Below are positions 20,889 to 64,000 of a stretch of DNA of 64,000 nt, piece after piece. Every line of letters begins with the position of its first letter. Within the stretch, counting starts at the first letter, position 1. The translations under genes and the position numbers were made by a program. The DNA is taken from NCBI GenBank assembly GCA_949286015.1, contig CASEBB010000002.1, positions 9,981 through 73,980 on the forward strand, in the 5' to 3' direction. The stretch is from an uncultured Succinivibrionaceae bacterium (GTDB lineage Bacteria; Pseudomonadota; Gammaproteobacteria; Enterobacterales; Succinivibrionaceae). The notes below the pieces were generated by a model that saw only the letters and a list, made by a program, of their open reading frames with translations, was not told the DNA's origin and did no database searches.

Positions 20889-22169
20889 CTAATCCTCCAC
20901 AACCTGACGTAAAAGCTGCAGCGAAGGCTCACGTAAAGCGGCTATGCCACTGTTATAACCTGCTGCCAGCTCGCGATTACGCGCTGTGAGCTCCTCACTG
21001 CTCTTACCTTGCAGCTCAGAGATCAAGACGTCTTTGATCCCAAAGACATCCTGCAGCATGGCAAGACGCGGATCGCAGCCATTACGGTAGAAGTACGAGA
21101 ATGGGGTATTGAAGATCAGAGAGAAGACCACACCATGGAAGGAGTTGGTGAGCACCAACTGCGCATGCGCCACAAAGTTCACAAACTCATAGGGCGCAGT
21201 CACAAAGCGTGACTGCCAGCGTAAGTGCAAGCGCTGCATGGTCTGCGCAATACGCGGAGTTGAGACCGTCTCACAAGGGGAGATGTCAAGCACTACCAAG
21301 TTAGGCTGGTGCGTCTGCTCGCGATAGCGGGCAATCAGCTCTAACGCCGCAATCACATCGTCTTCTTGCGTACCGTAGAAGGTGCTAAAGCTGTAGTACA
21401 GGATGTAAGGCTCGTTCTTGACCATAGGCTCAGCGGTCATGACGTGATAGTCAGCGCGGTCAAGAAGAAAGGAGGGGTCTAAGGCCGTAGTTACCGGCCC
21501 CAAAGATGGGGAAAGGTGACAGGAGTTTTGCAGGGTGTCGAGCCATGTTGGCTCACGCAGGCTAATAAGACGGAATTGCTGCCAGCCCTTTACCATGAAA
21601 TCGCGGTAACGCGCAAAGGCTGGATCGCTCGGCAGTGAGGTGCCAAAGCTCGCTGCATAGGCGTAATATCTACAGGCTACCCCCCCCCTAGATACAGAGA
21701 AAGGTGCTAAAAACCCGAAAAACTCCGGCTTGAGCTCAAAACCGTTGGCAAAGCACCAGACCCAATCGGAGCCGACCACGTATTTCATGTTAAGGCCCTG
21801 CTCTACCGAGCTCTTTTGGTCTGTGACGTTGCCTACAGTGGCACGTGGTACGCGCAGCACCATACTGCGGCAGAAGTGCTCAAAGCCGCGCTGACGCGTC
21901 ATCATGATCTTAAAAGCCTCTAAGGCGCGCTTTTTATCAGCGTCGAGATCACCTGTAGGCTGGCTCATGGCGCGATTAGAGTGGCTGCGGCCTCCCAGAT
22001 AGCACTCTAAAGGTTGGGTAGGCACTAAGCCGACAGCAATGGGCTCGCTAGCAGCGGGACGGGCAGCAACCTCCTTGCGCAGAGCAGTGATAAGAGCCCA
22101 TGCTTGCAAGTGAGCGCCGTAATTATCGTTTTGCGTGTGGGCTAGCGTAAGCACGCCAATAGCTTGCAC
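20889..22169 (-). CDS. Polysaccharide pyruvyl transferase family protein
   Basis: 426 aa. N-terminus IGVLTLAHTQNDNYGAHLQ and C-terminal VLTNSFHGVVFSLIFNTPF fit the pyruvyl-transferase family pattern. Confidence 0.75.
   Translation of the reverse strand: MQAIGVLTLAHTQNDNYGAHLQAWALITALRKEVAARPAASEPIAVGLVPTQPLECYLGGRSHSNRAMSQPTGDLDADKKRALEAFKIMMTRQRGFEHFCRSMVLRVPRATVGNVTDQKSSVEQGLNMKYVVGSDWVWCFANGFELKPEFFGFLAPFSVSRGGVACRYYAYAASFGTSLPSDPAFARYRDFMVKGWQQFRLISLREPTWLDTLQNSCHLSPSLGPVTTALDPSFLLDRADYHVMTAEPMVKNEPYILYYSFSTFYGTQEDDVIAALELIARYREQTHQPNLVVLDISPCETVSTPRIAQTMQRLHLRWQSRFVTAPYEFVNFVAHAQLVLTNSFHGVVFSLIFNTPFSYFYRNGCDPRLAMLQDVFGIKDVLISELQGKSSEELTARNRELAAGYNSGIAALREPSLQLLRQVVED
21680..21688 (-). 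repeat. Homopolymeric G9 tract (C9 on plus strand) inside the pyruvyl-transferase CDS
   Basis: Read directly: ggctaCCCCCCCCCtagat. On the coding strand it is tct aGG GGG GGG Gta, encoding S-R-G-G-V. The gene is currently in frame. Confidence 0.95.
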
Positions 22170-27789: not shown

Positions 27790-27903
27790 GGCCAGCTCGC
27801 TCCCTGCCCAGCACCGCTCTGCACTGCAATGCACCGCACTGCATGCACTGCACAGCTACCGCTCCCGCGACTTAGCAGGGCGCACACGATAATCATTCTC
27901 AAG

Positions 27904-34128: not shown

Positions 34129-36066
34129 CTACTGATCCTTCTTCACCGTAAAGACACGGCTGCTGCGGTGCACCACCTTTGGCCCGTTGCTCTCGTGGCC
34201 AGCACCGGCGCTGTTACCACCCTGCTGATAGCGGTTCTGGTAACCGCCTTGGCCCGAGCTTGGCTGGTAGCCACCCTGTGGGCGGTAGCTGCTGCCACCC
34301 TGTGGACGGTACGAGCTGCCGCCTTGTGGGCGATAGCCGCCACCACCTTGCTGGTAACCACCACCTTGTTGGTAGCCACCACCCTGTGGGCGGTAGCTGT
34401 TACCACCCTGTGGACGGTACGAGCTGCCGCCTTGTGGACGGTAGCCGCCACCACCTTGCTGGTAACCACCACCTTGTTGGTAGCCACCCTGTGGACGATA
34501 GCCACCGCCTTGTGGACGGTAACCACCAGCACCAGCCTGTGGACGATAACCACCACCCTGTGGACGGTAACCGCCTTGGCCTTGAGGGCGATAGCCGCCA
34601 CCCTGCTTGAAGCCACCAGGGCGACGTGGTGCCTGCTTGCGCTGCTGTTGCTTGCGCTGCTTGGCGGCCTTCTTCTTGGCCTTGGCTACGTCCTCAGCGA
34701 TCTGCTGCTTAATGCGAATGATCTCTTGACGAGCGTTCTCGCGGTGCTCCGGCTCAATCTCGCTGACCACGTTACCCTCGAGGTCAACACGAGGCACGCC
34801 ATCAGCCAGCTTCTGCAGGTAAGGAATGGAGTGGCAGTAGTTGTGGAGCATCTTGTAGCGATGCTTGTTGAAGTAGTTGTACTGCGCATCCATGCCCTCT
34901 AAGCGCTGCAGGATTTCCTGCGCAATACCAATCTTTAACGGCACGCGCTTGTCACGCTCGGTAAAGATGGCCTTAGGGAAGGCTAAAGCAAGGAAGCTTA
35001 AGAACTTGTCGCGCTCAGCCTTATCACGGGCACGACGCTCTTCAGCGGCCTTACGCTCCGCAGCGACCTTAGCGCGGCGTGCAGCACGCTCCGCTGGGGT
35101 CAGAATAGGACGGTTGTCACGCCACGAGCCCTTCTTCTTTGGCTCAGCACCGTCCCCCTCTGCACTAGGTGCCTCTCCCTCAGCAGGGGCAGCAGCACCA
35201 TCAGCGCTAGCTGGCGCTGTCTCAGCAGGAGCAGCCTCTACAGCTGCTGGGGCCACTGGAGCTTCTGCAGCTACAGGGGCAGCAGGAGCGGCTACTGGCT
35301 CAGGAGCAGCAATTGGCTCTGGCGCCTCGGCCTCGGCTGGGGCAGCGGCTGGAGCCTCAGCCTTATTGCCGATGTCATCGTCAGTGGTGGCTGGTACAGC
35401 CTCAGCTTCGACGCGATTGCCGATGTCGTCATCTTCCTCAGCATCAGCATCAGCTTCAGCAGCAGCGCCACCAGCAGCATCTTGCGCTTTGGCAGCGGCC
35501 GCTAAGGCTTTGATCTTATCTGACAGGGACGACTCAGCAGTGGCACTCTCAGCAGGGGCATCAGTTACAGCAGCTTCAGCTGCGGCGGCAGCGGCAGCAG
35601 CGTTGTCAGCCTCGATCTGGGCCTTGGTGCGACGGGTACGCTTTGGCTTGACCTCTTCACCAGCTTCAGCAGCGGCGGCAGCAGCTGCGGCAGCGGCAGC
35701 ATTGTCAGCTTCGATTTGCGCCTTGGTGCGACGGGTGCGCTTTGGCTTTACCTCTTCACCGGCGGCTGCGGCCTCAGCAGCAGCTGCAGCGGCAGCGGCA
35801 TTGTCTGCCTCAATTTGCGCTTTAGTACGGCGGGTACGCTTTGGCTTGACCTCTTCACCAGCCTCAGCGGCGGCTGCAGCAGCGGCGGCAGCGGCGGCAT
35901 TGTCAGCTTCGATTTGCGCCTTGGTGCGACGGGTACGCTTTGGCTTGGTCTCAGGAGCATCAGCGTTTACGATCACAGTACGTGGCAGGTCGTCACCTGC
36001 ACCTGTGAGCGTGCTTTTTTTTCGCGTAGCGGTTTGCTCCAAGCCGCTCGAGTTTTCGCTATCCAT
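34129..36066 (-). CDS. ProQ/FinO-domain RNA-binding protein with repetitive N- and C-terminal low-complexity regions
   Basis: Central segment FLSFLALAFPKAIFTERDKRVPLKIGIAQEILQRL...YLQKLADGVPRVDLEGNVVSEIEPEHRENARQEI aligns with E. coli ProQ (FLAERFP..F......PLKIGI......R.....YL.....G..RVDL.GN...E....H.E.A). ATG at 36066 is preceded by GGAG. Confidence 0.85.
   Translation of the reverse strand: MDSENSSGLEQTATRKKSTLTGAGDDLPRTVIVNADAPETKPKRTRRTKAQIEADNAAAAAAAAAAAEAGEEVKPKRTRRTKAQIEADNAAAAAAAAEAAAAGEEVKPKRTRRTKAQIEADNAAAAAAAAAAAEAGEEVKPKRTRRTKAQIEADNAAAAAAAAEAAVTDAPAESATAESSLSDKIKALAAAAKAQDAAGGAAAEADADAEEDDDIGNRVEAEAVPATTDDDIGNKAEAPAAAPAEAEAPEPIAAPEPVAAPAAPVAAEAPVAPAAVEAAPAETAPASADGAAAPAEGEAPSAEGDGAEPKKKGSWRDNRPILTPAERAARRAKVAAERKAAEERRARDKAERDKFLSFLALAFPKAIFTERDKRVPLKIGIAQEILQRLEGMDAQYNYFNKHRYKMLHNYCHSIPYLQKLADGVPRVDLEGNVVSEIEPEHRENARQEIIRIKQQIAEDVAKAKKKAAKQRKQQQRKQAPRRPGGFKQGGGYRPQGQGGYRPQGGGYRPQAGAGGYRPQGGGYRPQGGYQQGGGYQQGGGGYRPQGGSSYRPQGGNSYRPQGGGYQQGGGYQQGGGGYRPQGGSSYRPQGGSSYRPQGGYQPSSGQGGYQNRYQQGGNSAGAGHESNGPKVVHRSSRVFTVKKDQ
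34210..34620 (-). repeat. Coding repeats for the GGYRPQ / GGGYQQ tail
   Basis: Protein aa ~484-620: GGYRPQGQGGYRPQGGGYRPQAGAGGYRPQ..., including a larger internal duplication GGGYQQGGGYQQGGGGYRPQGGSSYRPQGG(N/S)SYRPQ. Confidence 0.9.
35572..35946 (-). repeat. About 3.8 tandem 99-bp coding repeats (33-aa unit KPKRTRRTKAQIEADN-polyA-GEEV)
   Basis: The word GCTTTGGCTT recurs at 35641, 35740, 35839 and 35938 (99-bp period). The protein shows three full units and one partial unit. Confidence 0.9.
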
Positions 36067-36957
36067 CAACTTAACTCCGATAACACCAACTGCTCTGAAT
36101 GCTAATACGCACGGTAACCAACACAGCGCGCCTTACCACCCTACAGCACCGGCTATCCTAAAAGAAATGATCACACTAGACTCGACTACTGTCTCCTAAA
36201 AGACAGTCACCTTTAGTCTAGGGCCGCATGGCAGATCGATCATTAGTAAACATAGAGCTGACATTGCCCTATGACAAAACTCTCAACAACGAAAAACTAC
36301 TTCCTGAGAAGCACAAGCCGACCACACCTTTTTGCTATGAGTACTCCGTTGAGGAAGGGTCAGCATCGCGTGGCATGCAAGAACACAGCACGCGCTTTTA
36401 GATGCGATAAAAAGCACAGAGTACTACTAATGTACAATGAGAATACCAAAAATTTCGACCAGAGAGCACATCTCACGTAAAAAATTTCTATGGCCCGTTG
36501 CAGTTACAGGCATAGCACAAGAAAGGGAGGCGCTTCAGGGCTTAAATAAGGGCAAAATGCCTGCTACAGGTGCAAGCTGCAACCACTGCTCTGACCACGC
36601 AAGGACGCTCACTCTTATGGTTTCACGTGGCATCAAGGTAGGGAAAGCTGTAGGGCAAAGAAGGGCGGGACAAATGGCAGGTGAGGAGAGGAAGCAAGGA
36701 AGCTGGAATAACGCCTGACGGCACTGTTATCTCAAGCAGATTAAGATCTGACCTCACTTCAAGGTAAAGTGCTCTCCTTGAGGTAATCAGATGCGGCGCT
36801 ATCTCTAAGGCCGGAGGCGCTGAGCTCACCTCAAGGTAACAGGGACGCCGCTAACCAGAGACAACAGCGCCTAACGGCGCTGCTATCCCCAGAGGAGCAA
36901 GGAGATTAAAGGGCAGCCACGTACTATGGCGTGGCCATACCCTGTAGAGACTACTCC

Positions 36958-45561: not shown

Positions 45562-45580
45562 CCTGCGCTACCGTGCTGCG

Positions 45581-45625
45581 TGCAGTGCAGTGCAGTGCAG
45601 TACTGTACTGAACTGCACTACTGTA
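45581..45625. repeat. Pentanucleotide-periodic tract (TGCAG)4(TACTG)2...
   Basis: Read directly, just 3' of the rodZ stop codon. Confidence 0.8.
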
Positions 45626-47244: not shown

Positions 47245-47275
47245 GTACGGAGTACGGGGTACGGGGTACGGGGTA
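47245..47275. repeat. Heptanucleotide tandem repeat (GTACGGR)4 + GTA
   Basis: Read directly: gtacgga gtacggg gtacggg gtacggg gta, 82-112 nt upstream of the rodZ start. Confidence 0.9.
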
Positions 47276-49035: not shown

Positions 49036-49123
49036 CTTAAGAGCGGCTTCAGCGCGGCCTAAGCGCAGCCGCAGCGCGGCTTAAGAGCAGCTTCAGAACT
49101 GCTTAAGCGCGGCTTAAATGCAG
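49036..49123. repeat. Degenerate ~10-11-nt tandem repeats (GCGGCTTAAG / GCAGCTTCAG type)
   Basis: Read directly. Low complexity. Not CRISPR-like. Confidence 0.6.
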
Positions 49124-56147: not shown

Positions 56148-58670
56148 ATGACAAACACCTCTCAACTCCACAAAGCCCCATCTTTTGGTGTCATCGTCTG
56201 CTTACAGGACTTGGGCTTTGCCTCTGATCACAGACTGATTACGGAAACGGAGAGCACCTTACTCTCTTTAGGTATCCGTTGTGACTCTGCCAGTGATGAT
56301 ACAGCGCCCGCCTCAGTAAGCTTTTCTTTGTGCGCCCGTGAGCAGCATCAGAGCGCCTTAGAGAGCCTTAAAGGCATACACAACGACGCTGCTACCTTTG
56401 CCGCTATGTCCTTGCAAGAGGCTCTCAAGCAAGCACTGCAAGCTTGCACGGCAGACTACGTCTTAATCTGCAGCAATGGTGATCAATATCCCCACTCTTT
56501 TCTCTCCACGGTACAGCAAAAGCTCTTAGCAGCGCCCGCCCCTCTTGATCTCATCAAAGGTGTAGTGGTTGATGATGCGGGCACGCCACTGTGGCCAACC
56601 ACCGATGCCACTGCCAGCGAGCAAGCCCCTGTAACGCTACTTACCAGCATCAGTACCTGTGTCTTTCGTCGTGACTATCTCTTAGCGCATGGCCTTGAGG
56701 ATGTGCTCACAGAGTGGTTCCTGCTCTACGCCGCGCGTGATCCACAGATAAAGATGGTGTTTTGCCCAGAGCTCAAGGTTGAAGTTAACAAGCACACCTT
56801 TGAAGCCACTGGCGCGCAGCGCTTCCATCTGTTAGGAGCTACCTTGCTGCGCCTTAACTCTGAGCTACAAAAGACCTCCGTAAGCGCAGAGCAGCGTCTC
56901 TATCTCTTAGCGACGGTCTTTGCTGACGTGTATCTTCAGCTTGAGCACCTCCCTTATGTAAAAGATCGCCTCATGTATGGCGAGCATATAGGTAAGGCCT
57001 ATAGTGCTCTAAGTGCGCAACTTAATGGCAGTGACACTCAAGACCACACCACAGCTACGCAGAACACTGCTACACAGTGTGCAGCAGCGCAGCTCTTTTT
57101 GACGCAACTGCGCACCATCAACCCGACAGCAGCTCAAGCCGCAGCAAGTGGCGATCCTTATGATCTCTTCCCTGCGTTAAGCCAGCAAGAGCAGGTGCAA
57201 TTGCAGATTAGAGCCAATGAGGATGAGTGCAAAATCGCGCACCTGCAAACGACTTTAGAAAAGCTCGGTGAGCTTTTGGCGCGACAGACACGCGGCGAAA
57301 CCGCCACCGATCAAAAGTTCTACGTCATTGCGGCCATGAGCAACATGCCTGTATTTCAGGACATGTGGCGCGATTACTTCCTCAACAACCCGTTCTTACG
57401 CGAACGTCCTAACATCAAGCTGGTGCAGTGGCTCACAGAGGTCAATGCCGATGGCAATATTGACCAAGGTCGGGCTCAAAACGAGTTCATTGCGTCCTGT
57501 GACTTAAGTGAGGATGCATGGCTGTTTTTCGTGCATGCTGACTACGAGATTCTCGACGATTTGGGTCAGGTCTTTGCCCCACTTGATCGTAATTGTCTCT
57601 ATAGCCCGCATGGAGTGGTTAAAGCCAAATACCGTGACAAGTACTACAGCATCTACCTCAACAGTCACGTCCAAGAAAACCGTCACGATAACGGTTTCAA
57701 TCCTGGCCACACCAATCTCGACCTTGTTGGGGACAACGATAGGGTTGAGTGCTTAGACTCTATCATCGCTATCCACACCTCGCTGTTAAGGCGTTACCCT
57801 AAGCTGCGCTTTGATGACAAGCTCACCATCCACCTTGCCATTGAAGACATCAGCATTAATGGCCTGCTCAATTACGGTATTGAGTCACGCCAACTTTTTA
57901 TCAACGCCAATCACCACGGTGAGCACATCTTTACCACGCTCTTACAGCCGGAGTTTGTCCGCTTCAGAGACTACCTCACAGAGAAGTATCCTGACCATTA
58001 CTTCCCTGTGGTGATGGGTAATTTCGTAGGCCATCTGGATACCTTAAAGATTACCGAGACCAATGGCGCTACTTTAGAAGTAGAAGCCGCAGATTATGGC
58101 CAGCACATCTACAACCACTACCAACGCCCAGACTTTATTTGGTCGCAGCAATTTATTGATTACCGCCGTAATCACGTAACAGCCACCTTAGCCGCTAAGC
58201 TCAAAGAGGGCGTAGACGACATCTCTGGTGCGCTGGTTGATCGTATGGAAGATCTGTACGACCTGCTGCCAATGCAAAGTCACGTCTTGATCCAAAAGGA
58301 CGCTACCTTACCTGAGGAGGAGCAGCAGCAACGCTGTAAGTTGTGGCTACAGAAGTCTACCAACAACACGCAACCAGAGCTCATTTACCAATACGGACTC
58401 TGCGAGAGCGATCCTCGAGTGCTGACATACATTAACGGTAAGGATCTTATCGTCTGTAACACCAACAACAATGGTGATACCACGCTGTTGTTCCCTGAGA
58501 TGTTCCCACAGTCGCAAGTCTATGCCATTGAGGCAGACACAGCTAATTTCAAGCATGTGCCAGAGCGCACGCTGGTGCATACCATGAGGGCAGTCAGTCA
58601 GTCAGTCAGTCAGTCGGGGGCGTCCCCGATGTATCTAAGCAGACTGCGTTCACCACCCACGCTGCTGTAG
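56148..58670 (+). CDS. Multi-domain protein, paralogue 1: GT-A-like N-terminal region fused to the N-half of an FkbM-type methyltransferase; truncated after an AGTC tract
   Basis: 840 aa. Long identical peptide runs shared with 59442-61397 (LTSISTCVFRRDYLLAHGLEDVLTEWFLLYA, WRDYFLNNPFLRERPNIKLVQ). From LDTLKITETNG onward it is paralogous to the ORFs at 62345 and 63670. The frame ends about 18 codons after the tract. Confidence 0.8.
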   Translation: MTNTSQLHKAPSFGVIVCLQDLGFASDHRLITETESTLLSLGIRCDSASDDTAPASVSFSLCAREQHQSALESLKGIHNDAATFAAMSLQEALKQALQACTADYVLICSNGDQYPHSFLSTVQQKLLAAPAPLDLIKGVVVDDAGTPLWPTTDATASEQAPVTLLTSISTCVFRRDYLLAHGLEDVLTEWFLLYAARDPQIKMVFCPELKVEVNKHTFEATGAQRFHLLGATLLRLNSELQKTSVSAEQRLYLLATVFADVYLQLEHLPYVKDRLMYGEHIGKAYSALSAQLNGSDTQDHTTATQNTATQCAAAQLFLTQLRTINPTAAQAAASGDPYDLFPALSQQEQVQLQIRANEDECKIAHLQTTLEKLGELLARQTRGETATDQKFYVIAAMSNMPVFQDMWRDYFLNNPFLRERPNIKLVQWLTEVNADGNIDQGRAQNEFIASCDLSEDAWLFFVHADYEILDDLGQVFAPLDRNCLYSPHGVVKAKYRDKYYSIYLNSHVQENRHDNGFNPGHTNLDLVGDNDRVECLDSIIAIHTSLLRRYPKLRFDDKLTIHLAIEDISINGLLNYGIESRQLFINANHHGEHIFTTLLQPEFVRFRDYLTEKYPDHYFPVVMGNFVGHLDTLKITETNGATLEVEAADYGQHIYNHYQRPDFIWSQQFIDYRRNHVTATLAAKLKEGVDDISGALVDRMEDLYDLLPMQSHVLIQKDATLPEEEQQQRCKLWLQKSTNNTQPELIYQYGLCESDPRVLTYINGKDLIVCNTNNNGDTTLLFPEMFPQSQVYAIEADTANFKHVPERTLVHTMRAVSQSVSQSGASPMYLSRLRSPPTLL
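58591..58615 (+). repeat. Tetranucleotide tract C(AGTC)6 inside the coding sequence, followed by G5
   Basis: Read directly: cagtcagtcagtcagtcagtcagtc ggggg. Confidence 0.97.
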
Positions 58671-58723
58671 GCGAGCACCACCACCGCATCTCCACTACTC
58701 AGCTGTCAGGTCATGCCTCCTGC

Positions 58724-59092
58724 TTGCAGGAGTGCAACGCTGACCAATCACCAAATTATCGCCAACACCGTAACGGGCAGTATCGTCCCGCCCCAGAGAA
58801 CGTGGACGTTATGACGCTGGATGACTTCGTACAGACGCACAACCTGAGCGTGGGTCTCATTAAGCTAGACATCGATGGCTTTGAGATGCAAGCTATATGC
58901 GGAGCTCTGCACACGATCAAGACGCAACGGCCTGTCATTATCAGCGCTATCTACCACACACCTGAAGAGTACTACGAGCTCAAGCCGTACCTCGAAAGCT
59001 TGAACTTAGACTACGAGTTCAAGCTGCGCTACTTAGGCAATAGCAACCACTCCCCCAAGATCGTTCTGGTCGCTATGCCCAAGCTTAGCTAG
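58724..59092 (+). CDS. C-terminal half of the FkbM-type methyltransferase, out of frame with 56148-58670
   Basis: LIKLDIDGFEMQAICGALHTIKTQRPVIISAIYH matches the FkbM-family C-terminal motif. The same frame is open back to the tract at 58616 (hand translated, no stop). Confidence 0.8.
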   Translation: MQECNADQSPNYRQHRNGQYRPAPENVDVMTLDDFVQTHNLSVGLIKLDIDGFEMQAICGALHTIKTQRPVIISAIYHTPEEYYELKPYLESLNLDYEFKLRYLGNSNHSPKIVLVAMPKLS

Positions 59093-59441: not shown

Positions 59442-61397
59442 ATGACCAACTACTCTCAGACCCACAGTATCCCATCTATTGGTGTAATCGTTTGCCTGCT
59501 GGACTTAGACTTTGCCTCAGGCGACAGACTGGTTACAGAAACCGCAAGCACCTTACGTTCGCTCGATATCAACAGTAACGCCGTCAGCAACGACATTGCT
59601 AACCACACCACCACCACCACCCCCACCACCACCACCACCACCACGCCAGAGTACATCGCTGTAAACTTGTATCTGTGCGCCCGCGAGCAGCATCAGAGCT
59701 CCTTAGAAAGACTGCAAGAGCAGCACACTGTCACTGCTACTTTCGCCGCTAAGACCTTGCAAGAAGCCCTTAACCACGCTCTGCAAGCTTGCAGTGCCGA
59801 TTATGTCTTAATCTGCTGCAATGGCGATCTCTATTCTCCGCACTACCTTGCCACGGTACAGCAAAAGCTTGTAGCAGCGCCCGCCCCTTACGATCTTATA
59901 AAAGGTGTCGTGGTCGATAATGCAGGCACGCCACTGTGGCCAACCACCGATGCCACTGCCTGCGAGCAACCCCCTGTAACGATACTTACCAGCATCAGTA
60001 CCTGTGTTTTCCGTCGTGACTACCTCTTAGCGCATGGCCTTGAGGATGTGCTCACGGAGTGGTTCCTGCTCTACGCCGTGCGTGATCCTCAGATCAAGAT
60101 GGTGTTTTGCCCAGAGCTCAAGGTTGAGGTCAATCAGCACACCTTTGACGCCACCGGCATGCAGCGCTTCCATCTGTTAAGTGCCACCTTGCAACGGCTC
60201 AACTCCGAGTTACAAGAGACCTCCTTAAGCGAGCCGCAACGACTCCACCTCTTAGCTACGGTCTTCAATGACGCCTATCTTCAGCTGCAGCGCGTTTCTT
60301 ATGTGAAATACCGCTTCATGTTTGGCGAGCATCTGTGCAAGGCTTATTGTGCAATCGCTGCGCAGCTGCGCAGCCAGCAGGTTAACGCTGCCACGAGCTC
60401 TACTGTTGCACCTCAGTGTGCGTCCATACAAAGTGAGGCGTGGCAGCTCTTTTTGACCCAGCTGCATGCTCTCAATCCCACCTTGGCTACTGCCGTAGAG
60501 CGCAACGATCCTTATGCCCTCTTTCCTGCGTTAAACCAGCACGAGCAGGTACAGTTACAAATCAAGGCCAATGAGTCTGCCTACAAAATTGAGCACCTGC
60601 AAACGACCTTAGGCAAGTTAGGCGAGCTGCTTAATCGGCAAACGCGAGGTGAGACGGCCACCGACCCAAAAGTCTACGTCATTGTGGCTATGAGCAATAT
60701 GCCTGAATTTCAGGGCATGTGGCGTGACTACTTCCTCAATAACCCCTTCTTACGGGAACGCCCAAACATCAAGCTCGTGCAGTTACTCACAGAGGTCAAT
60801 GCAGAGGGTACTATCGACCAAGGACGTGTGTGCAACGAATTTCTGCAGTCACTTGATCTGAGTGAGGATGCGTGGCTATTTTTCGTGCAAGCTGATTACG
60901 AGATCCTCGATGATTTAGGTAAGATCTTTGCTCTGCTTGATCGTAATTGCTTCTACGGCCCCCACGGTCATATCAGGGCCAAGTACCGTAATCAGGATTA
61001 CAGCCTACAAATCAACATGCACGTGCTTGAAAATCGCCACGATGGTAGCTTTAACCCTGGTCACAACAATATTGACTTGCTTTGGGACAACAACAGAGTT
61101 GAGGCCTTAGAAGCGGTCTTGGCTGTCCATAGCTCGCTGCTACGCCGTTATCCGCAGCTGCGCTTTGATGATAAACTCACTATCCATTTGCCTATCCAAG
61201 ACCTCAGCATTAACGGCCAGCTCAATTACGGCATTGAATCGCGCGCACTTGCGATCAATGCCAATCACCACTGTAACCATTACTTCACCTCACCACCGGC
61301 TCTTATCAAGAGCTTAGCTTACCTTACAGACAAGTACCCTGATCTCTACATCCCTGTATTATTAGGGCATTTCGTAGGTAAGAAGAGCACCAAGTAA
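59442..61397 (+). CDS. GT-A-like protein, paralogue 2 of the N-terminal region of 56148-58670 (stand-alone)
   Basis: 651 aa. Colinear with aa 1-~625 of paralogue 1. It ends ...LLGHFVGKKSTK* where paralogue 1 reads on (...VMGNFVGHLDTLK...). Confidence 0.85.
   Translation: MTNYSQTHSIPSIGVIVCLLDLDFASGDRLVTETASTLRSLDINSNAVSNDIANHTTTTTPTTTTTTTPEYIAVNLYLCAREQHQSSLERLQEQHTVTATFAAKTLQEALNHALQACSADYVLICCNGDLYSPHYLATVQQKLVAAPAPYDLIKGVVVDNAGTPLWPTTDATACEQPPVTILTSISTCVFRRDYLLAHGLEDVLTEWFLLYAVRDPQIKMVFCPELKVEVNQHTFDATGMQRFHLLSATLQRLNSELQETSLSEPQRLHLLATVFNDAYLQLQRVSYVKYRFMFGEHLCKAYCAIAAQLRSQQVNAATSSTVAPQCASIQSEAWQLFLTQLHALNPTLATAVERNDPYALFPALNQHEQVQLQIKANESAYKIEHLQTTLGKLGELLNRQTRGETATDPKVYVIVAMSNMPEFQGMWRDYFLNNPFLRERPNIKLVQLLTEVNAEGTIDQGRVCNEFLQSLDLSEDAWLFFVQADYEILDDLGKIFALLDRNCFYGPHGHIRAKYRNQDYSLQINMHVLENRHDGSFNPGHNNIDLLWDNNRVEALEAVLAVHSSLLRRYPQLRFDDKLTIHLPIQDLSINGQLNYGIESRALAINANHHCNHYFTSPPALIKSLAYLTDKYPDLYIPVLLGHFVGKKSTK
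59607..59645 (+). repeat. (ACC)n trinucleotide tract encoding T5-P-T7
   Basis: Read directly. Absent from paralogue 1. Confidence 0.9.
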
Positions 61398-61452
61398 CAG
61401 CAGCGCTTAGCAGCACGCGGTTCTTAAGCTCGCGAGCTCGCGCTTAAGACGC
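61273..61452 (+). repeat. Left copy of a ~176-bp direct duplication (3' end of 59442-61397 plus downstream palindrome)
   Basis: GTAACCATTACTTCACCTCACCACCGGCTCTTATCAAGAGCTTA...CTTAAGACGC recurs at 62019-62193 with a few mismatches and a ~5-nt indel. Confidence 0.9.
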
Positions 61453-62019
61453 CCGAGTTTAGTACCACATGTCGCCTAAAACAGCTTATATATCTGCTTA
61501 AGCACCACTCTCCAACAACATGGTTGTAGGAAAAAGTAGGAAAATCATTGGCATAGCCCGCGCCCTTCTTTGGTGCAAAGGCTCATAAGAACCGCATAAA
61601 CACCTTAAAAGCCACTAAGAGGTAGACTACGACCGCAGTACTGGTTAACGACAGCAACCCCGTTGCTAGTACCACCCCAGTAGGGCGGCCTTCGACAGCA
61701 TACCAAGGGGCGAAGCGTGGCTTTCCTATGCGGTTTGATGGATGCCAAAAGCAGCATCGTCCCTGCGATCAAGCAGGTGGTGCCTAGGTGATGGCGTGTG
61801 GCGTGAACAACCTCGGAGTAGTGTTGGTGCCCTATCCACCAAACGCAGTGTAGAGCCCAAAATGGTGGCTGACACTAACGTACCTATTGTGGTACCCTGT
61901 CCCCAATGATACGTGACTGACGTGTTGAGTGGCAAATTTTCCTACCACCCTGTACTAACAAAGCGGCTGAAAACAGCTTACGTATGCTCATATCCTCGAA
62001 GAAAGGTTCAAAACTCGGG
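61452..62019. mobile_element. ORF-less ~566-bp insertion bounded by perfect 9-bp inverted repeats
   Basis: CCCGAGTTT (61452-61460) and AAACTCGGG (62011-62019). It has subterminal AAAACAGCTTA words at both ends, contains an X-family repeat, and has only a 69-aa ORF. Confidence 0.55.
61811..61880. repeat. Second repeat family ('X'), partial copy 3
   Basis: CCTCGGAGTAGTGTTGGTGCCCTATCCACCAAACGCAGTGTAGAGCCCAAAATGGTGGCTGAC is related to the 5' module of copy 2 (GAGGTTGGTGTTGGTGTCCTATCTACCAAAAGC). Confidence 0.55.
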
Positions 62020-62193
62020 TAACCATTACTTCACCTCACCACCGGCTCTTATCAAGAGCTTACCTTACAGCCAAGTACCCTGATCTCTACATCCCTGTAT
62101 TATTAGGGCATTTCGTAGGTAAGAAGAGCACCAAGTAACAGCAGCGCTTAGCAGCACGCAGATCTTAAGCTTGCGAGCTCGCGCTTAAGACGC
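62019..62193 (+). pseudogene. Right copy of the duplication: decayed duplicate of the last ~40 codons of 59442-61397 plus the downstream palindrome
   Basis: Aligns with 61273-61452. The indel breaks the frame relative to the parent gene, and there is no upstream coding continuation. Confidence 0.8.
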
Positions 62194-62319
62194 AACAGTT
62201 TTCCTCACTCCCCCACGCCCTACCAACGCAACGACACGGTCGCCACATAGTGACCAGCACCAGCGTTATGAGTTTGGGACTCTGCAGCGGGGCGCAGCCA
62301 TAAGCTCCACTGCTTCACT

Positions 62320-62333
62320 TTCTAACACAACAC
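62320..62333 (+). promoter_or_regulatory. Leader motif TTCTAACACAACAC (site 2)
   Basis: Lies 11 nt before the ATG at 62345. No Shine-Dalgarno-like purine run in between. Confidence 0.35.
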
Positions 62334-62344
62334 CAATCCATAGT

Positions 62345-63013
62345 ATGGACACTTTAAAGCTAACTAAAACTAATGGCGACACCACTGAGGTGACAGCCGC
62401 AGAGTATGGTCATTACATCTACGACCACTATGAGCAGCACGACTTTATCTGGTCGCAGGACTTCATGCGCTATCGCCGTAATCACGTGACAGCCTCCTTA
62501 GCAGCAAAGCTTAAGGCTGGTATGGACGAGCTCTCCTGTGCCTTGGTAGACCACATGGAGGACATGTATGATCTGCTGCCAATGTTAGGTCACGTTCTGA
62601 TCCAAAAGGATGCGGTCTTAACCGCTGAGGATCAGAAGCGCTGTCAGTTATGGCAGCAAAAGGCTGCCAACAACGAGCTGCCAGACTTTTATAAGCAGCT
62701 ACCAATGTTTTGTCAGCCAGAGTACGTCAACCAATACGGCCTCTACGACAGTGATCCTCAAGTGCTGGCCTACATCAACGGTAAGGACATCATCGACGGT
62801 GGCGCCTACATGGGTGACACCACGCTGTTGTTCCACGAGATGTTTCCACAGTCGCGTCTCTACGCCGTTGAGCCCGCATCAACCAACATCAAGTACATGC
62901 AAGAGCGCACGCTCGCGCCACTCCTAGGTCAGTCAGTCAGTCAGTCAGTCAGTCAATCGGGGGCGTCCCCGATGTATCTAAGCAGTGTGCGTTCACCATC
63001 CACGCCGCTCTAG
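62345..63013 (+). CDS. FkbM-type methyltransferase, N-terminal half (paralogue 2), truncated after an AGTC tract
   Basis: 222 aa. SAM-binding motif IIDGGAYMGDTTLLFHEMFPQSRLYAVEP. The frame ends about 19 codons after the tract. Confidence 0.85.
   Translation: MDTLKLTKTNGDTTEVTAAEYGHYIYDHYEQHDFIWSQDFMRYRRNHVTASLAAKLKAGMDELSCALVDHMEDMYDLLPMLGHVLIQKDAVLTAEDQKRCQLWQQKAANNELPDFYKQLPMFCQPEYVNQYGLYDSDPQVLAYINGKDIIDGGAYMGDTTLLFHEMFPQSRLYAVEPASTNIKYMQERTLAPLLGQSVSQSVSQSGASPMYLSSVRSPSTPL
62928..62955 (+). repeat. Tetranucleotide tract (GTCA)7 = GTC(AGTC)6A, followed by ATC and G5
   Basis: Read directly: gtcagtcagtcagtcagtcagtcagtca atc ggggg. Confidence 0.97.
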
Positions 63014-63030
63014 GTGAGCACCACGATCGC

Positions 63031-63435
63031 ATGACCATTACCAAACCATCTGGTCATGCCTCCTACTCGCTCGTGCTCAACGCTGATCATTCCCCGAATT
63101 ATCTCAAGTACCGCAACGAGCAGTATCGTCCCGATATCGAGGAAGTGGACATCATTGCCATCGATGATTTAGTCCAAGAGCGCCACCTGAATGTCGGCCT
63201 CATTAAGTTCGATATCGAGGGCTTTGAACCCCAAGCCATGCGCGGTGCCTTGCACACGATTAAGACGCAGCGGCCTGTCATCATCAGCGCCATCTACCAC
63301 ACGCCAGAGGAGTACTACGAGCTCAAGCCTTACCTTGAGAGCTTAGATCTGGGCTATGAGTTCAAACTCCGTTACTCTGGCAGTAGACAGCCCTACTATG
63401 AGATCGTGCTGATCGCTACTCCCAAGATAAGCTAA
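63031..63435 (+). CDS. FkbM-type methyltransferase, C-terminal half (paralogue 2), out of frame with 62345-63013
   Basis: LIKFDIEGFEPQAMRGALHTIKTQRPVIISAIYH. The frame is open back to 62959 (hand translated: GGVPDVSKQCAFTIHAALGEHHDRM). Confidence 0.85.
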   Translation: MTITKPSGHASYSLVLNADHSPNYLKYRNEQYRPDIEEVDIIAIDDLVQERHLNVGLIKFDIEGFEPQAMRGALHTIKTQRPVIISAIYHTPEEYYELKPYLESLDLGYEFKLRYSGSRQPYYEIVLIATPKIS

Positions 63436-63478
63436 GCCACACCGAACACATCTGGTGCTAAGCCAGATACCAGACAAC

Positions 63479-63510
63479 AGCAGCGCACATAGCTCTATTT
63501 GTGCGCTGCT
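63479..63510 (+). terminator. 11-bp perfect-stem hairpin after the methyltransferase gene (no T-run)
   Basis: AGCAGCGCACA-TAGCTCTATT-TGTGCGCTGCT. Confidence 0.35.
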
Positions 63511-63641
63511 TAGTCATCCCACCTGTATCCGTACTGCGTTGGGTTAACGGCACACTTAGCTTGATGCCTGCAGACTACAAGGCTGCAGGCAATGATGGGA
63601 CAAAGTGTACGTAGGCGTCATGGTTGCGGGCCCCTCTTATG

Positions 63642-63655
63642 TTCTAACACAACAC
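63642..63655 (+). promoter_or_regulatory. Leader motif TTCTAACACAACAC (site 3)
   Basis: Lies 14 nt before the ATG at 63670. Confidence 0.35.
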
Positions 63656-63669
63656 ACCCTGAGTACAGT

Positions 63670-64000
63670 ATGGATACTTTGCAACTCACCAAAACTAACG
63701 GCGAAACCTATGAGATGTCGGCCTCGGACTACGGCCATCTCATCCACGACACCTACCAGCAGATGGACTTTGTGTTTGCCGCAGAGTTTATCCGCTACCG
63801 CCGCCAGCATGTGACTGCCACTTTAGCTGCCAACCTCAAAGCAGGTATGGACGACATCTCCTGTGCGCTGATCGACCACATGGAGGATATGTACGACCTG
63901 CTGCCGATGCTGCCTAAAGTCATGGTGAGCAACGCGGCGGTCTTTACCCCTGAGGATCACCAGCGCTACCAGTTATGGCAACAGATGGTGGCAAGCAAGA
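63670..64000 (+). CDS. FkbM-type methyltransferase, paralogue 3 (5' part; runs off the window)
   Basis: Not in the ORF track because no stop is reached. Hand translation MDTLQLTKTNGETYEMSASDYGHLIHDTYQQMDFVFAAEFIRYRRQHVTATLAANLKAGMDD... is colinear with 62345-63013. Confidence 0.8.
   Translation, partial: MDTLQLTKTNGETYEMSASDYGHLIHDTYQQMDFVFAAEFIRYRRQHVTATLAANLKAGMDDISCALIDHMEDMYDLLPMLPKVMVSNAAVFTPEDHQRYQLWQQMVASK

Follow-up and report, generated by a model that had tools for sequence, protein, structure and literature searches.

A probable AGTC-repeat switch in an FkbM-family methyltransferase gene of an uncultured gut Anaerobiospirillum

Introduction

When a gene is broken in its middle by a short tandem repeat, is it a dead gene or a gene that has been caught in its silent state? 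The question is raised by a stretch of 64,000 nucleotides (nt) from an uncultured Succinivibrionaceae bacterium (assembly GCA_949286015.1, contig CASEBB010000002.1, positions 9,981 to 73,980 of the forward strand; the whole stretch is referred to below as the window), in which an FkbM-family methyltransferase gene is interrupted by a tract of AGTC tetranucleotides. The gene, which we call cassette 2, lies between two paralogues, cassettes 1 and 3. The closest species-level genome is that of Candidatus Anaerobiospirillum pullicola (Succinivibrionaceae), which has 88-94% DNA identity across the locus, and more distant homologues of the methyltransferase (35-40% identity) likewise come from Anaerobiospirillum. 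An earlier note, made from the letters of this DNA, had proposed that the tract holds cassette 2 in an OFF frame from which a change in length could release it, and had listed a plain pseudogene, recoding, gene conversion and chance among the matters to be settled. We conclude that the tract is a simple-sequence-repeat contingency locus, caught OFF in the window, and consider repeat-mediated ON/OFF variation of the methyltransferase gene to be probable.

Results

The AGTC tract sets the reading frame of cassette 2

At the site of interruption the window reads ...CTAGG TC(AGTC)6 AATC GGGGG CGTCCCCGATG... Tandem Repeats Finder reports (GTCA)7 at positions 62928-62955 (period 4, 7.0 copies, 100% matches); the variant unit AATC (62955-62958) comes next, and the G5 run lies directly 3′ of the tract (Table 1). 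Translations of the frames and the repeat finder agree that the gene is split by (GTCA)7 and is OFF, as had been claimed. A 20-nt (GTCA)5 probe matched none of 100 shuffled sequences and, in the window, only positions 58589-58616 and 62928-62955. Thus, the tract is not a chance occurrence.

The upstream open reading frame (ORF; 62345-63013, 222 amino acids (aa)) reads ...GQSVSQSVSQSGASPMY..., running through the tract as GQSVSQSVSQS. The downstream half is encoded in frame 1 mod 3, i.e., the -1 frame relative to the start codon, where it reads ...GGVPDVSKQCAFTIHAALGEHHDRMTIT... and ends at a stop codon at 63433-63435. This frame had been correctly described as open, but not with its correct limit: instead of beginning at 62959, it is open from 62872 to 63435, across the whole tract. 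The tract specifies an (SQSV)n peptide in all frames of the + strand and has no stop codon in any of them. Since AGTC repeats are stop-free in every + frame, the site of truncation is set by stop codons further downstream, either the one at 63011 or, in the third frame, the one at 62979-62981, which gives rise to the 210-aa products seen in related contigs L004, L005 and L010. In silico, the addition of one unit produces a protein of 364 aa, the removal of two units a protein of 360 aa and the addition of one G a protein of 363 aa, and the prediction that any of these changes restores an FkbM protein of about 364 aa therefore holds.

The hairpin that adjoins the tract (Table 1) has a counterpart in cassette 1, which is a 6-base-pair (bp) version. 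Scans of positions 61300-63700 for promoters and terminators returned matches at chance level only. The possibility of a two-piece enzyme, its second piece made by re-initiation at the ATG at 63031, was considered and set aside as improbable: throughout the family this methionine is conserved as an ordinary residue (DRMTIT), and a cut at this point would part strand 3 from the remaining fold.

Table 1. Features of the methyltransferase locus in the window
Feature	Position	Strand	Evidence
Cassette 1: partner protein (~620 aa) fused in frame to methyltransferase paralogue	56148-59092	+	
Cassette-1 tract (AGTC)6, then G5; homologous alignment columns and same frame state as in cassette 2	58592-58620	+	
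Cassette-2 partner gene, 651 aa, separate from methyltransferase; variable poly-Thr (ACC)n	59442-61397	+	
N-terminal part of cassette-2 FkbM methyltransferase gene: start codon, N-terminal helical domain, DGGAYMGD, beta2 (YAVEP)	62345-62927	+	
Tract (GTCA)7 = GTC(AGTC)6, plus variant unit AATC	62928-62958	+	Tandem Repeats Finder, shuffles, related contigs
Patch 93-97% identical to cassette 1 (58596-58655): tract and ~45 nt downstream	62939-62998	+	Sliding identity
Perfect 7-bp inverted repeat ATCGGGG-GCGT-CCCCGAT; adjoins tract and includes G5	62956-62973	+	RNA fold
G5 run	62959-62963	+	GGGGG kept in every regular allele
C-terminal half of cassette-2 methyltransferase, intact, -1 frame relative to start codon; VGLIKxDxEG and YHTPEEYYELKP motifs	62964-63435	+	Translation, alignment
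Stop codon TAG ending the OFF-frame product at 222 aa	63011-63013	+	ORF translation
Start of third methyltransferase paralogue (cassette 3), cut by window end, tract-less	63670-64000	+	Matches P0005

Tract length varies in whole units among near-identical contigs

The cluster formed around this protein at 90% identity contains truncated members of 210, 210, 211, 218, 219 and 222 aa and full-length members of 359, 360, 360 and 372 aa. The alleles of the ten metagenome contigs that carry these proteins were compared between identical anchors, using assembled consensus sequences; the window and the regular alleles are listed in Table 2. As can be seen, tracts of 4, 5, 6 or 7 units, with or without AATC, cover all three frames, and one allele is cleanly ON. 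The claim that a frame-shifting tetranucleotide tract can be restored by whole units is thus borne out by natural alleles. An invariant tract length, which the earlier note had named as evidence against its proposal, was not what we found.

Table 2. Regular tract alleles of cassette 2
Source	Tract	State	Product
Window	GTC(AGTC)6AATC-G5	OFF	222 aa
L010	(AGTC)5AATC	OFF, other frame	210 aa
L004, L005	(AGTC)6	OFF, other frame	210 aa
L002	(AGTC)5	ON	360 aa
L007	(AGTC)4	OFF, window's frame	218 aa

In the flanks of the tract the ten contigs are 99.3-100% identical to the window and free of indels. Over 1,030 nt of flank, they show 0-5 substitutions and zero indels, and L010 shows no difference at all, yet has one unit fewer; the N-terminal part (62345-62927) is 100% identical in seven of the ten. 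None of the regular alleles departs from G5; what varies is the number of AGTC units and the presence of AATC. Changes in length are thus concentrated in the repeat and proceed in whole units, the signature of slipped-strand mispairing.

In L001 the frame is regained with the unit number unchanged. This contig keeps seven units and has a net loss of 8 nt just after the tract, in the 5′ arm of the hairpin, where ATCGGGGGC is replaced by G (positions 4335-4345 of L001), so that the gene is in frame and ON. The deletion is a second route to the ON state, and probably an irreversible one.

The contigs that carry the L002 and L010 alleles bear names of the k87_ style, which we read as an assembler word length of 87. 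Since a word of 87 nt would span the stretch of ~50 nt common to cassettes 1 and 2, these two alleles are probably not assembly chimeras. The irregular alleles of L003, L006, L008 and L009 were set aside as possible scaffolding artefacts and were not counted as evidence. JGI metagenome contigs were scanned for exact copies of the 27-nt patch GGGGGCGTCCCCGATGTATCTAAGCAG, with 0 matches and hence no additional alleles, and a contig lookup for the 222-aa product of the window (P0125) found none on record.

The rebuilt protein is an FkbM-family methyltransferase with the tract in a predicted loop

The protein rebuilt by restoring the frame matches Pfam PF05050 (Methyltransf_21, FkbM domain; 47.4 bits versus a cut-off of 22.7, residues 151-340) and TIGR01444 (68.3 bits versus a cut-off of 37.7). 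In an alignment of 16 relatives it retains all the invariant residues of the family, among them motif I for S-adenosylmethionine (SAM) binding, DGGAYMGD, which had been reported as intact in this copy and is conserved in the alignment. In an AlphaFold2 model of the rebuilt protein (predicted local distance difference test score (pLDDT) 80, predicted TM-score (pTM) 0.81), the main segment of low confidence comprises residues 195-214, i.e., the tract peptide, between a helix (191-202) and a strand (217-221), and it is exactly at the tract position that the homologues in the alignment vary in length. Taken together, the low-confidence segment and the length variation place the tract in a loop where the number of SQSV repeats should be free to vary.

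The nearest structure by sequence is the FkbM protein 2py6 of Methylobacillus flagellatus (E = 8e-7), which is also the top Foldseek match to the model (E = 5e-10). The two proteins belong to the same family, but their identity is only 17% and TM-scores are low (0.38), owing to the extra domain and loops of the rebuilt protein, whose N-terminal domain of ~145 aa has no counterpart of known function. The enzyme is probably a sugar O-methyltransferase; family precedent (PMC2651432) and a glycosyltransferase-like neighbour make a glycan substrate a reasonable inference.

A switch compared with a pseudogene, an artefact and recoding

The orthologue of Ca. A. pullicola is intact (349 aa) and lacks the tract. 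Comparison with it gave ratios of nonsynonymous to synonymous substitution rates (dN/dS) of 0.154 for the N-terminal half and 0.106 for the out-of-frame C-terminal half, the latter with a synonymous rate (dS) of 0.42 over 148 codons. The low ratio indicates that the half that is not translated in the window has been under purifying selection. What the sequences show is the tract, the arithmetic of its frames, the enzyme family, natural alleles that include an ON one, and purifying selection on the out-of-frame half.

Several points weigh against repeat-mediated switching. The irregular alleles of L003, L006, L008 and L009, along with the cassette-1 regions of L004 and L005, all come from scaffolded assemblies and may be assembly artefacts. 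The ON alleles consist of one regular allele (L002) and one deletion (L001) only, and it is possible that the allelic differences are fixed between strains that are very closely related. With 6-7 units the tract is short compared with the 14 to 30 or more units that are typical of Haemophilus influenzae, and its switching rate may be modest. Finally, the glycosyltransferase nature of the neighbouring gene is a matter of remote homology.

Of the rival explanations, the one that survives best, though we regard it as unlikely, is that cassette 2 is a decaying pseudogene, in which an inactivating frameshift was fixed in a redundant paralogue and tract variation is neutral noise. Three paralogues do stand side by side in tandem, most of the observed alleles are OFF, and larger deletions are present in some (L008, L009); cassette 1, moreover, has a degenerate SAM motif and a dN/dS of 0.21, compared with 0.11 between cassettes 2 and 3. 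However, a decaying gene would not be expected to keep its downstream 148-157 codons free of stops and indels in the window and in nine of ten related contigs, or to show a dN/dS of 0.106 at a dS of 0.42 relative to the orthologue. All the invariant family residues are retained, full-length alleles exist, and the tract changes in whole units, as slippage would have it, between flanks that carry no indels. The plain pseudogene that the earlier note had kept as an option is contradicted by the downstream dN/dS of ~0.11 and by the ON alleles.

It is even less probable that the split is an artefact of sequencing or assembly, the true tract being in frame and the observed lengths arising from mis-assembly over a repeat shared by two cassettes. 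Contigs L001, L007 and L009 start within the cassette-1 tract, where L008 contains Ns; several of the scaffolded alleles appear garbled, and the tract and patch are identical between the cassettes over ~50 nt. On the other hand, the exact 222-aa product of the window is an independent NCBI and ENA entry (P0125), and five regular alleles are separated by steps of exactly 4 nt, in no fewer than five assemblies whose contigs follow two naming styles (scaffold_ and k87_). The 87-nt assembler word read from the k87_ names is longer than the shared stretch, and, at 28 nt, a tetranucleotide repeat is much shorter than a read and not the kind of site at which short-read errors typically occur.

The weakest rival, which we consider highly improbable, is programmed -1 frameshifting, in which the OFF configuration would be the normal one and a glycyl-tRNA would slip on G5 (TCG GGG GCG to C GGG GGC) to yield the full-length enzyme at a set ratio: the downstream half does lie in the -1 frame, GGG-to-GGG re-pairing is possible on G5, a 7-bp hairpin is present at the site and cassette 1 has the same configuration, but a heptamer of the form X XXY YYZ is missing (in the zero frame, CAA TCG GGG GCG permits single-tRNA re-pairing only), the G run is itself part of the sole local hairpin (62956-62973), whereas a stimulatory structure would be expected 5-9 nt downstream of the slip site, the 121-nt region is no more stably folded than its shuffles (z = -1.44, with 21 of 200 folding as well), and the configuration is not conserved, since L004, L005 and L010 need a +1 shift, L002 and L001 are simply in frame, and the closest species and cassette 3 have neither the tract nor G5. 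The -1 slip at G5 suggested earlier thus finds no support, and switching by change of repeat length remains the preferred explanation.

Cassette 1 carries a related tract

The ORF of cassette 1 (56148-58670) is interrupted at its own tract, and the downstream half runs to 59092. The tracts of the two cassettes occupy homologous alignment columns and are in the same frame state, in agreement with the claim that both genes are OFF in the same frame. The difference in length of 6 nt given earlier holds for the tract plus decayed unit; measured from one conserved anchor to the next, it is 3 nt (45 versus 42). Both numbers are multiples of 3, so the shared-frame conclusion stands.

The two tracts do not share a state in other samples: L003 combines the cassette-1 tract of the window with a different cassette-2 allele, and cassette 2 of L004 and L005 is in a frame other than the window's. 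Since the states of cassettes 1 and 2 differ independently elsewhere, chance suffices to explain the shared OFF frame, which is not improbable in itself. Chance, one of the options offered in the earlier note, is therefore its most likely cause.

Sliding identity of the alignment revealed the patch listed in Table 1 against an overall DNA identity of 71% between cassettes 1 and 2. The segment is absent from the tract-less relatives P0002-P0007 and from L011. This pattern suggests a repeat module that the paralogues either inherited in common or acquired from one another by gene conversion. The alignment check that had been recommended for gene conversion thus yielded a highly similar patch, which fits either origin.

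SAM motif I of cassette 1 (58450-58480) reads VCNTNNNGD, while every relative has D[GA]GA[YFN]xGD. The dN/dS of cassette 1 versus cassette 2 is ~0.21 in both halves and that of cassette 3 versus cassette 2 is 0.11. Given the degenerate motif and the roughly doubled ratio, the cassette-1 methyltransferase may be catalytically dead, although it bears a tract.

A further observation concerns cassette 2 as a whole. Relative to Ca. A. pullicola (L011), dS is 0.10 at 62345-62927 and 0.42 at 62986-63435. The gene looks like a mosaic whose two parts meet at or near the tract, as if paralogues or strains had recombined.

Surroundings of the tract-bearing genes

Cassette 3 corresponds to P0005, a 349-aa protein free of repeats that reads ...ELLKTDTPRVFTVHAG... 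Its 349 aa are preserved intact in L001, L002, L004, L005, L007, L008 and L009, and in related contigs the next gene after it is gyrB, on the other strand. The earlier suggestion to determine the tract phase of this paralogue is answered by its having no tract.

Direct Pfam and NCBIfam scans of the partner proteins gave no significant match (GT2, E = 0.09). A word-indexed homologue search found just 6 close relatives of the partner, while an exhaustive profile search found 176 relatives of its C-terminal domain of ~220 aa, which is widespread. Four of 28 aligned members of this domain match PF13712 (Glyco_tranf_2_5), some members are fused to GT2 and methyltransferase domains, and the domain profile matches PDB entries 2qgi/2nxv (E = 1.8e-6), which we take to be a uridine diphosphate-binding GT-A-type protein of Rhodobacter blasticus. 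By remote homology, the C-terminal domain would be GT-A-type glycosyltransferase-like. An AlphaFold2 model of the 651-aa partner, built with 8 close sequences, was too poor for a fold search (pLDDT 47, pTM 0.36).

The 651-aa partner contains an (ACC)n stretch (59602-59644) that encodes poly-threonine, TTTTPTTTTTTTP. Between anchors, this segment measures 60 nt in the window and 60, 45, 42, 39, 39 and 33 nt in related contigs, all multiples of 3; in L001, which has a larger deletion at this place, it is 25 nt long. The (ACC)n stretch is a linker of variable length that stays in frame and not a frame switch. A direct repeat of ~180 bp (61273-61452 and 62019-62193), made up of the 3′ end of the 651-aa gene and the sequence downstream of it, flanks an insert of ~566 bp between the partner gene and the methyltransferase. 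The insert is common to all near-identical contigs, and Ca. A. pullicola (L011) has one copy of the repeat and no insert.

Other repeats in the genus and in the window

Among the FkbM homologues with 35-40% identity, four carry long runs of G or C: C9 in L012 (7876-7884) and L016 (7898-7906), G11 in L017 (7899-7909) and G9 in L018 (5721-5729). Their hosts are Ca. A. stercoravium, Ca. A. pullistercoris and one uncultured Anaerobiospirillum. The runs are located a few codons after a conserved basic N-terminus (MSRSKRRNQ... or MAKNK...); one of them keeps the frame of the start codon and the other three do not, meeting a stop right after the tract. Interrupted versions of the 5′ run are found in L015 and L020. 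The 5′ G/C runs are possible homopolymer switches in the same gene family, and their occurrence suggests that this methyltransferase family has been repeatedly tied to hypermutable repeats in Anaerobiospirillum.

Elsewhere in the window, a G9 run on the - strand (21680-21688) falls within a 426-aa ORF (20889-22169, - strand) that matches the polysaccharide pyruvyl transferase family PF04230. It is located ~160 codons into the ORF, just before the domain, and is in frame as sequenced; it may represent a second contingency site, located in a glycan gene. The following short tandem repeats appear to be intergenic: TACC x7.2 at 128-155, GCACT x8.8 at 27811-27853 (just downstream of a MalK-like ABC ATPase gene), GTGCA x4.4 at 45580-45601, GTACGGG x4.4 at 47245-47275 and an 11-mer x7.5 at 49036-49117 (upstream of a chemotaxis receptor gene). 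Coding tandem repeats at 34271-34488 and 35577-35947, with periods of 108 and 99/198 nt and 81-96% matches, fall in the region of a 646-aa ORF (34129-36069, - strand).

Discussion

The mechanism that we propose for cassette 2 is not new in itself: it is the classical design of a contingency locus. Slipped-strand mispairing at replication would add or remove whole 4-nt units of (AGTC)n and, because 4 is not a multiple of 3, each such change would either bring into frame or throw out of frame the C-terminal 60% of the enzyme. The window would represent the state with seven units (AATC included), in which the gene is OFF and a truncated product of 222 aa is made, and one more unit or two fewer would lead to the full enzyme. 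In the Rossmann fold, the SQSV repeat would be accommodated by the surface loop that joins helix B to strand 3 and, since the (SQSV)n tract is free of stops and lies in such a loop, different ON lengths should be tolerated. In combination with the cassette-1 tract, a population could carry cells with different states of surface-glycan methylation. Slippage as the mechanism, its rate, its reversibility within a clone and the substrate are what we infer from the alleles and the enzyme family.

The best-known parallels are found in H. influenzae, where AGTC tetranucleotide repeats and an FkbM-family gene with a (G)12 tract have been listed among the candidates for phase variation (PMC2651432). 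In lic1, lic2A, lgtC, mod with AGTC/AGCC repeats, and an AGTC-bearing GT2 gene of strain R2846, a perfect intragenic tetranucleotide sets the frame just as in cassette 2; the unit number likewise differs between close genomes, AGTC is among the units used, the encoded peptide is hydrophilic and the targets are surface-glycan enzymes (PMC2651432). Unlike the tract described here, which has 4-7 units and interrupts the catalytic domain in mid-gene, at codon ~196 of 364, the H. influenzae tracts have ~10-30 or more units and are located just after the start codon. The host also differs, being an anaerobic gut member of Succinivibrionaceae, and the switch is duplicated in two tandem paralogues.

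Two further systems involve methyltransferases. NTHI0694 of H. influenzae 86-028NP is an FkbM-family gene with a (G)12 tract, for which O-methylation of lipopolysaccharide sugars has been suggested (PMC2651432). It combines the same enzyme family with an intragenic simple repeat, but its tract is a 5′ homopolymer and not a mid-gene AGTC repeat; in this respect it resembles the G/C runs of the other Anaerobiospirillum homologues rather than the tract of the window. In Campylobacter jejuni, a polyG tract switches cj1426, which encodes the 6-O-methyltransferase of a capsule heptose, at ~2-3 x 10^-2 (PMC8437040); further polyG genes of this species act on capsule and lipooligosaccharide. As proposed for cassette 2, a glycan methyltransferase is there turned ON and OFF by repeat slippage in a host that lives in the animal gut (PMC8437040) and, as may be the case at our locus, several switches per glycan locus lead to combinatorial surface states. 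The cj1426 repeat, however, is homopolymeric G and not a tetranucleotide, and the locus in the window is not a recognisable capsule cluster.

A more far-reaching scenario, towards which we are on balance sceptical, is that a portable switch module, consisting of (AGTC)n, the G5 hairpin and ~45 nt, was gene-converted between the cassettes to make a two-bit switch of glycan methylation, while the family separately gained 5′ polyG/C switches in sister species. The family would then be a recurrent target of hypermutability, and the locus would be the first phase-variable system described in Succinivibrionaceae. Among the papers searched in full text, none links phase variation to Anaerobiospirillum or Succinivibrionaceae.

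What is known of phase variation comes mostly from a handful of pathogens, namely Haemophilus, Neisseria, Campylobacter and Helicobacter. The locus described here would follow the same logic in an uncultured gut Anaerobiospirillum, with ON and OFF alleles that can be read from public metagenome assemblies. A tract placed mid-domain in a tolerant loop, together with a module shared by paralogues, is a useful pattern for genome scans that look for contingency loci, and, if our interpretation is true, annotators are warned against calling such split methyltransferase genes pseudogenes. It would also mean that surface-glycan methylation is heterogeneous within commensal populations, which bears on escape from phages and antibodies in the animal gut.

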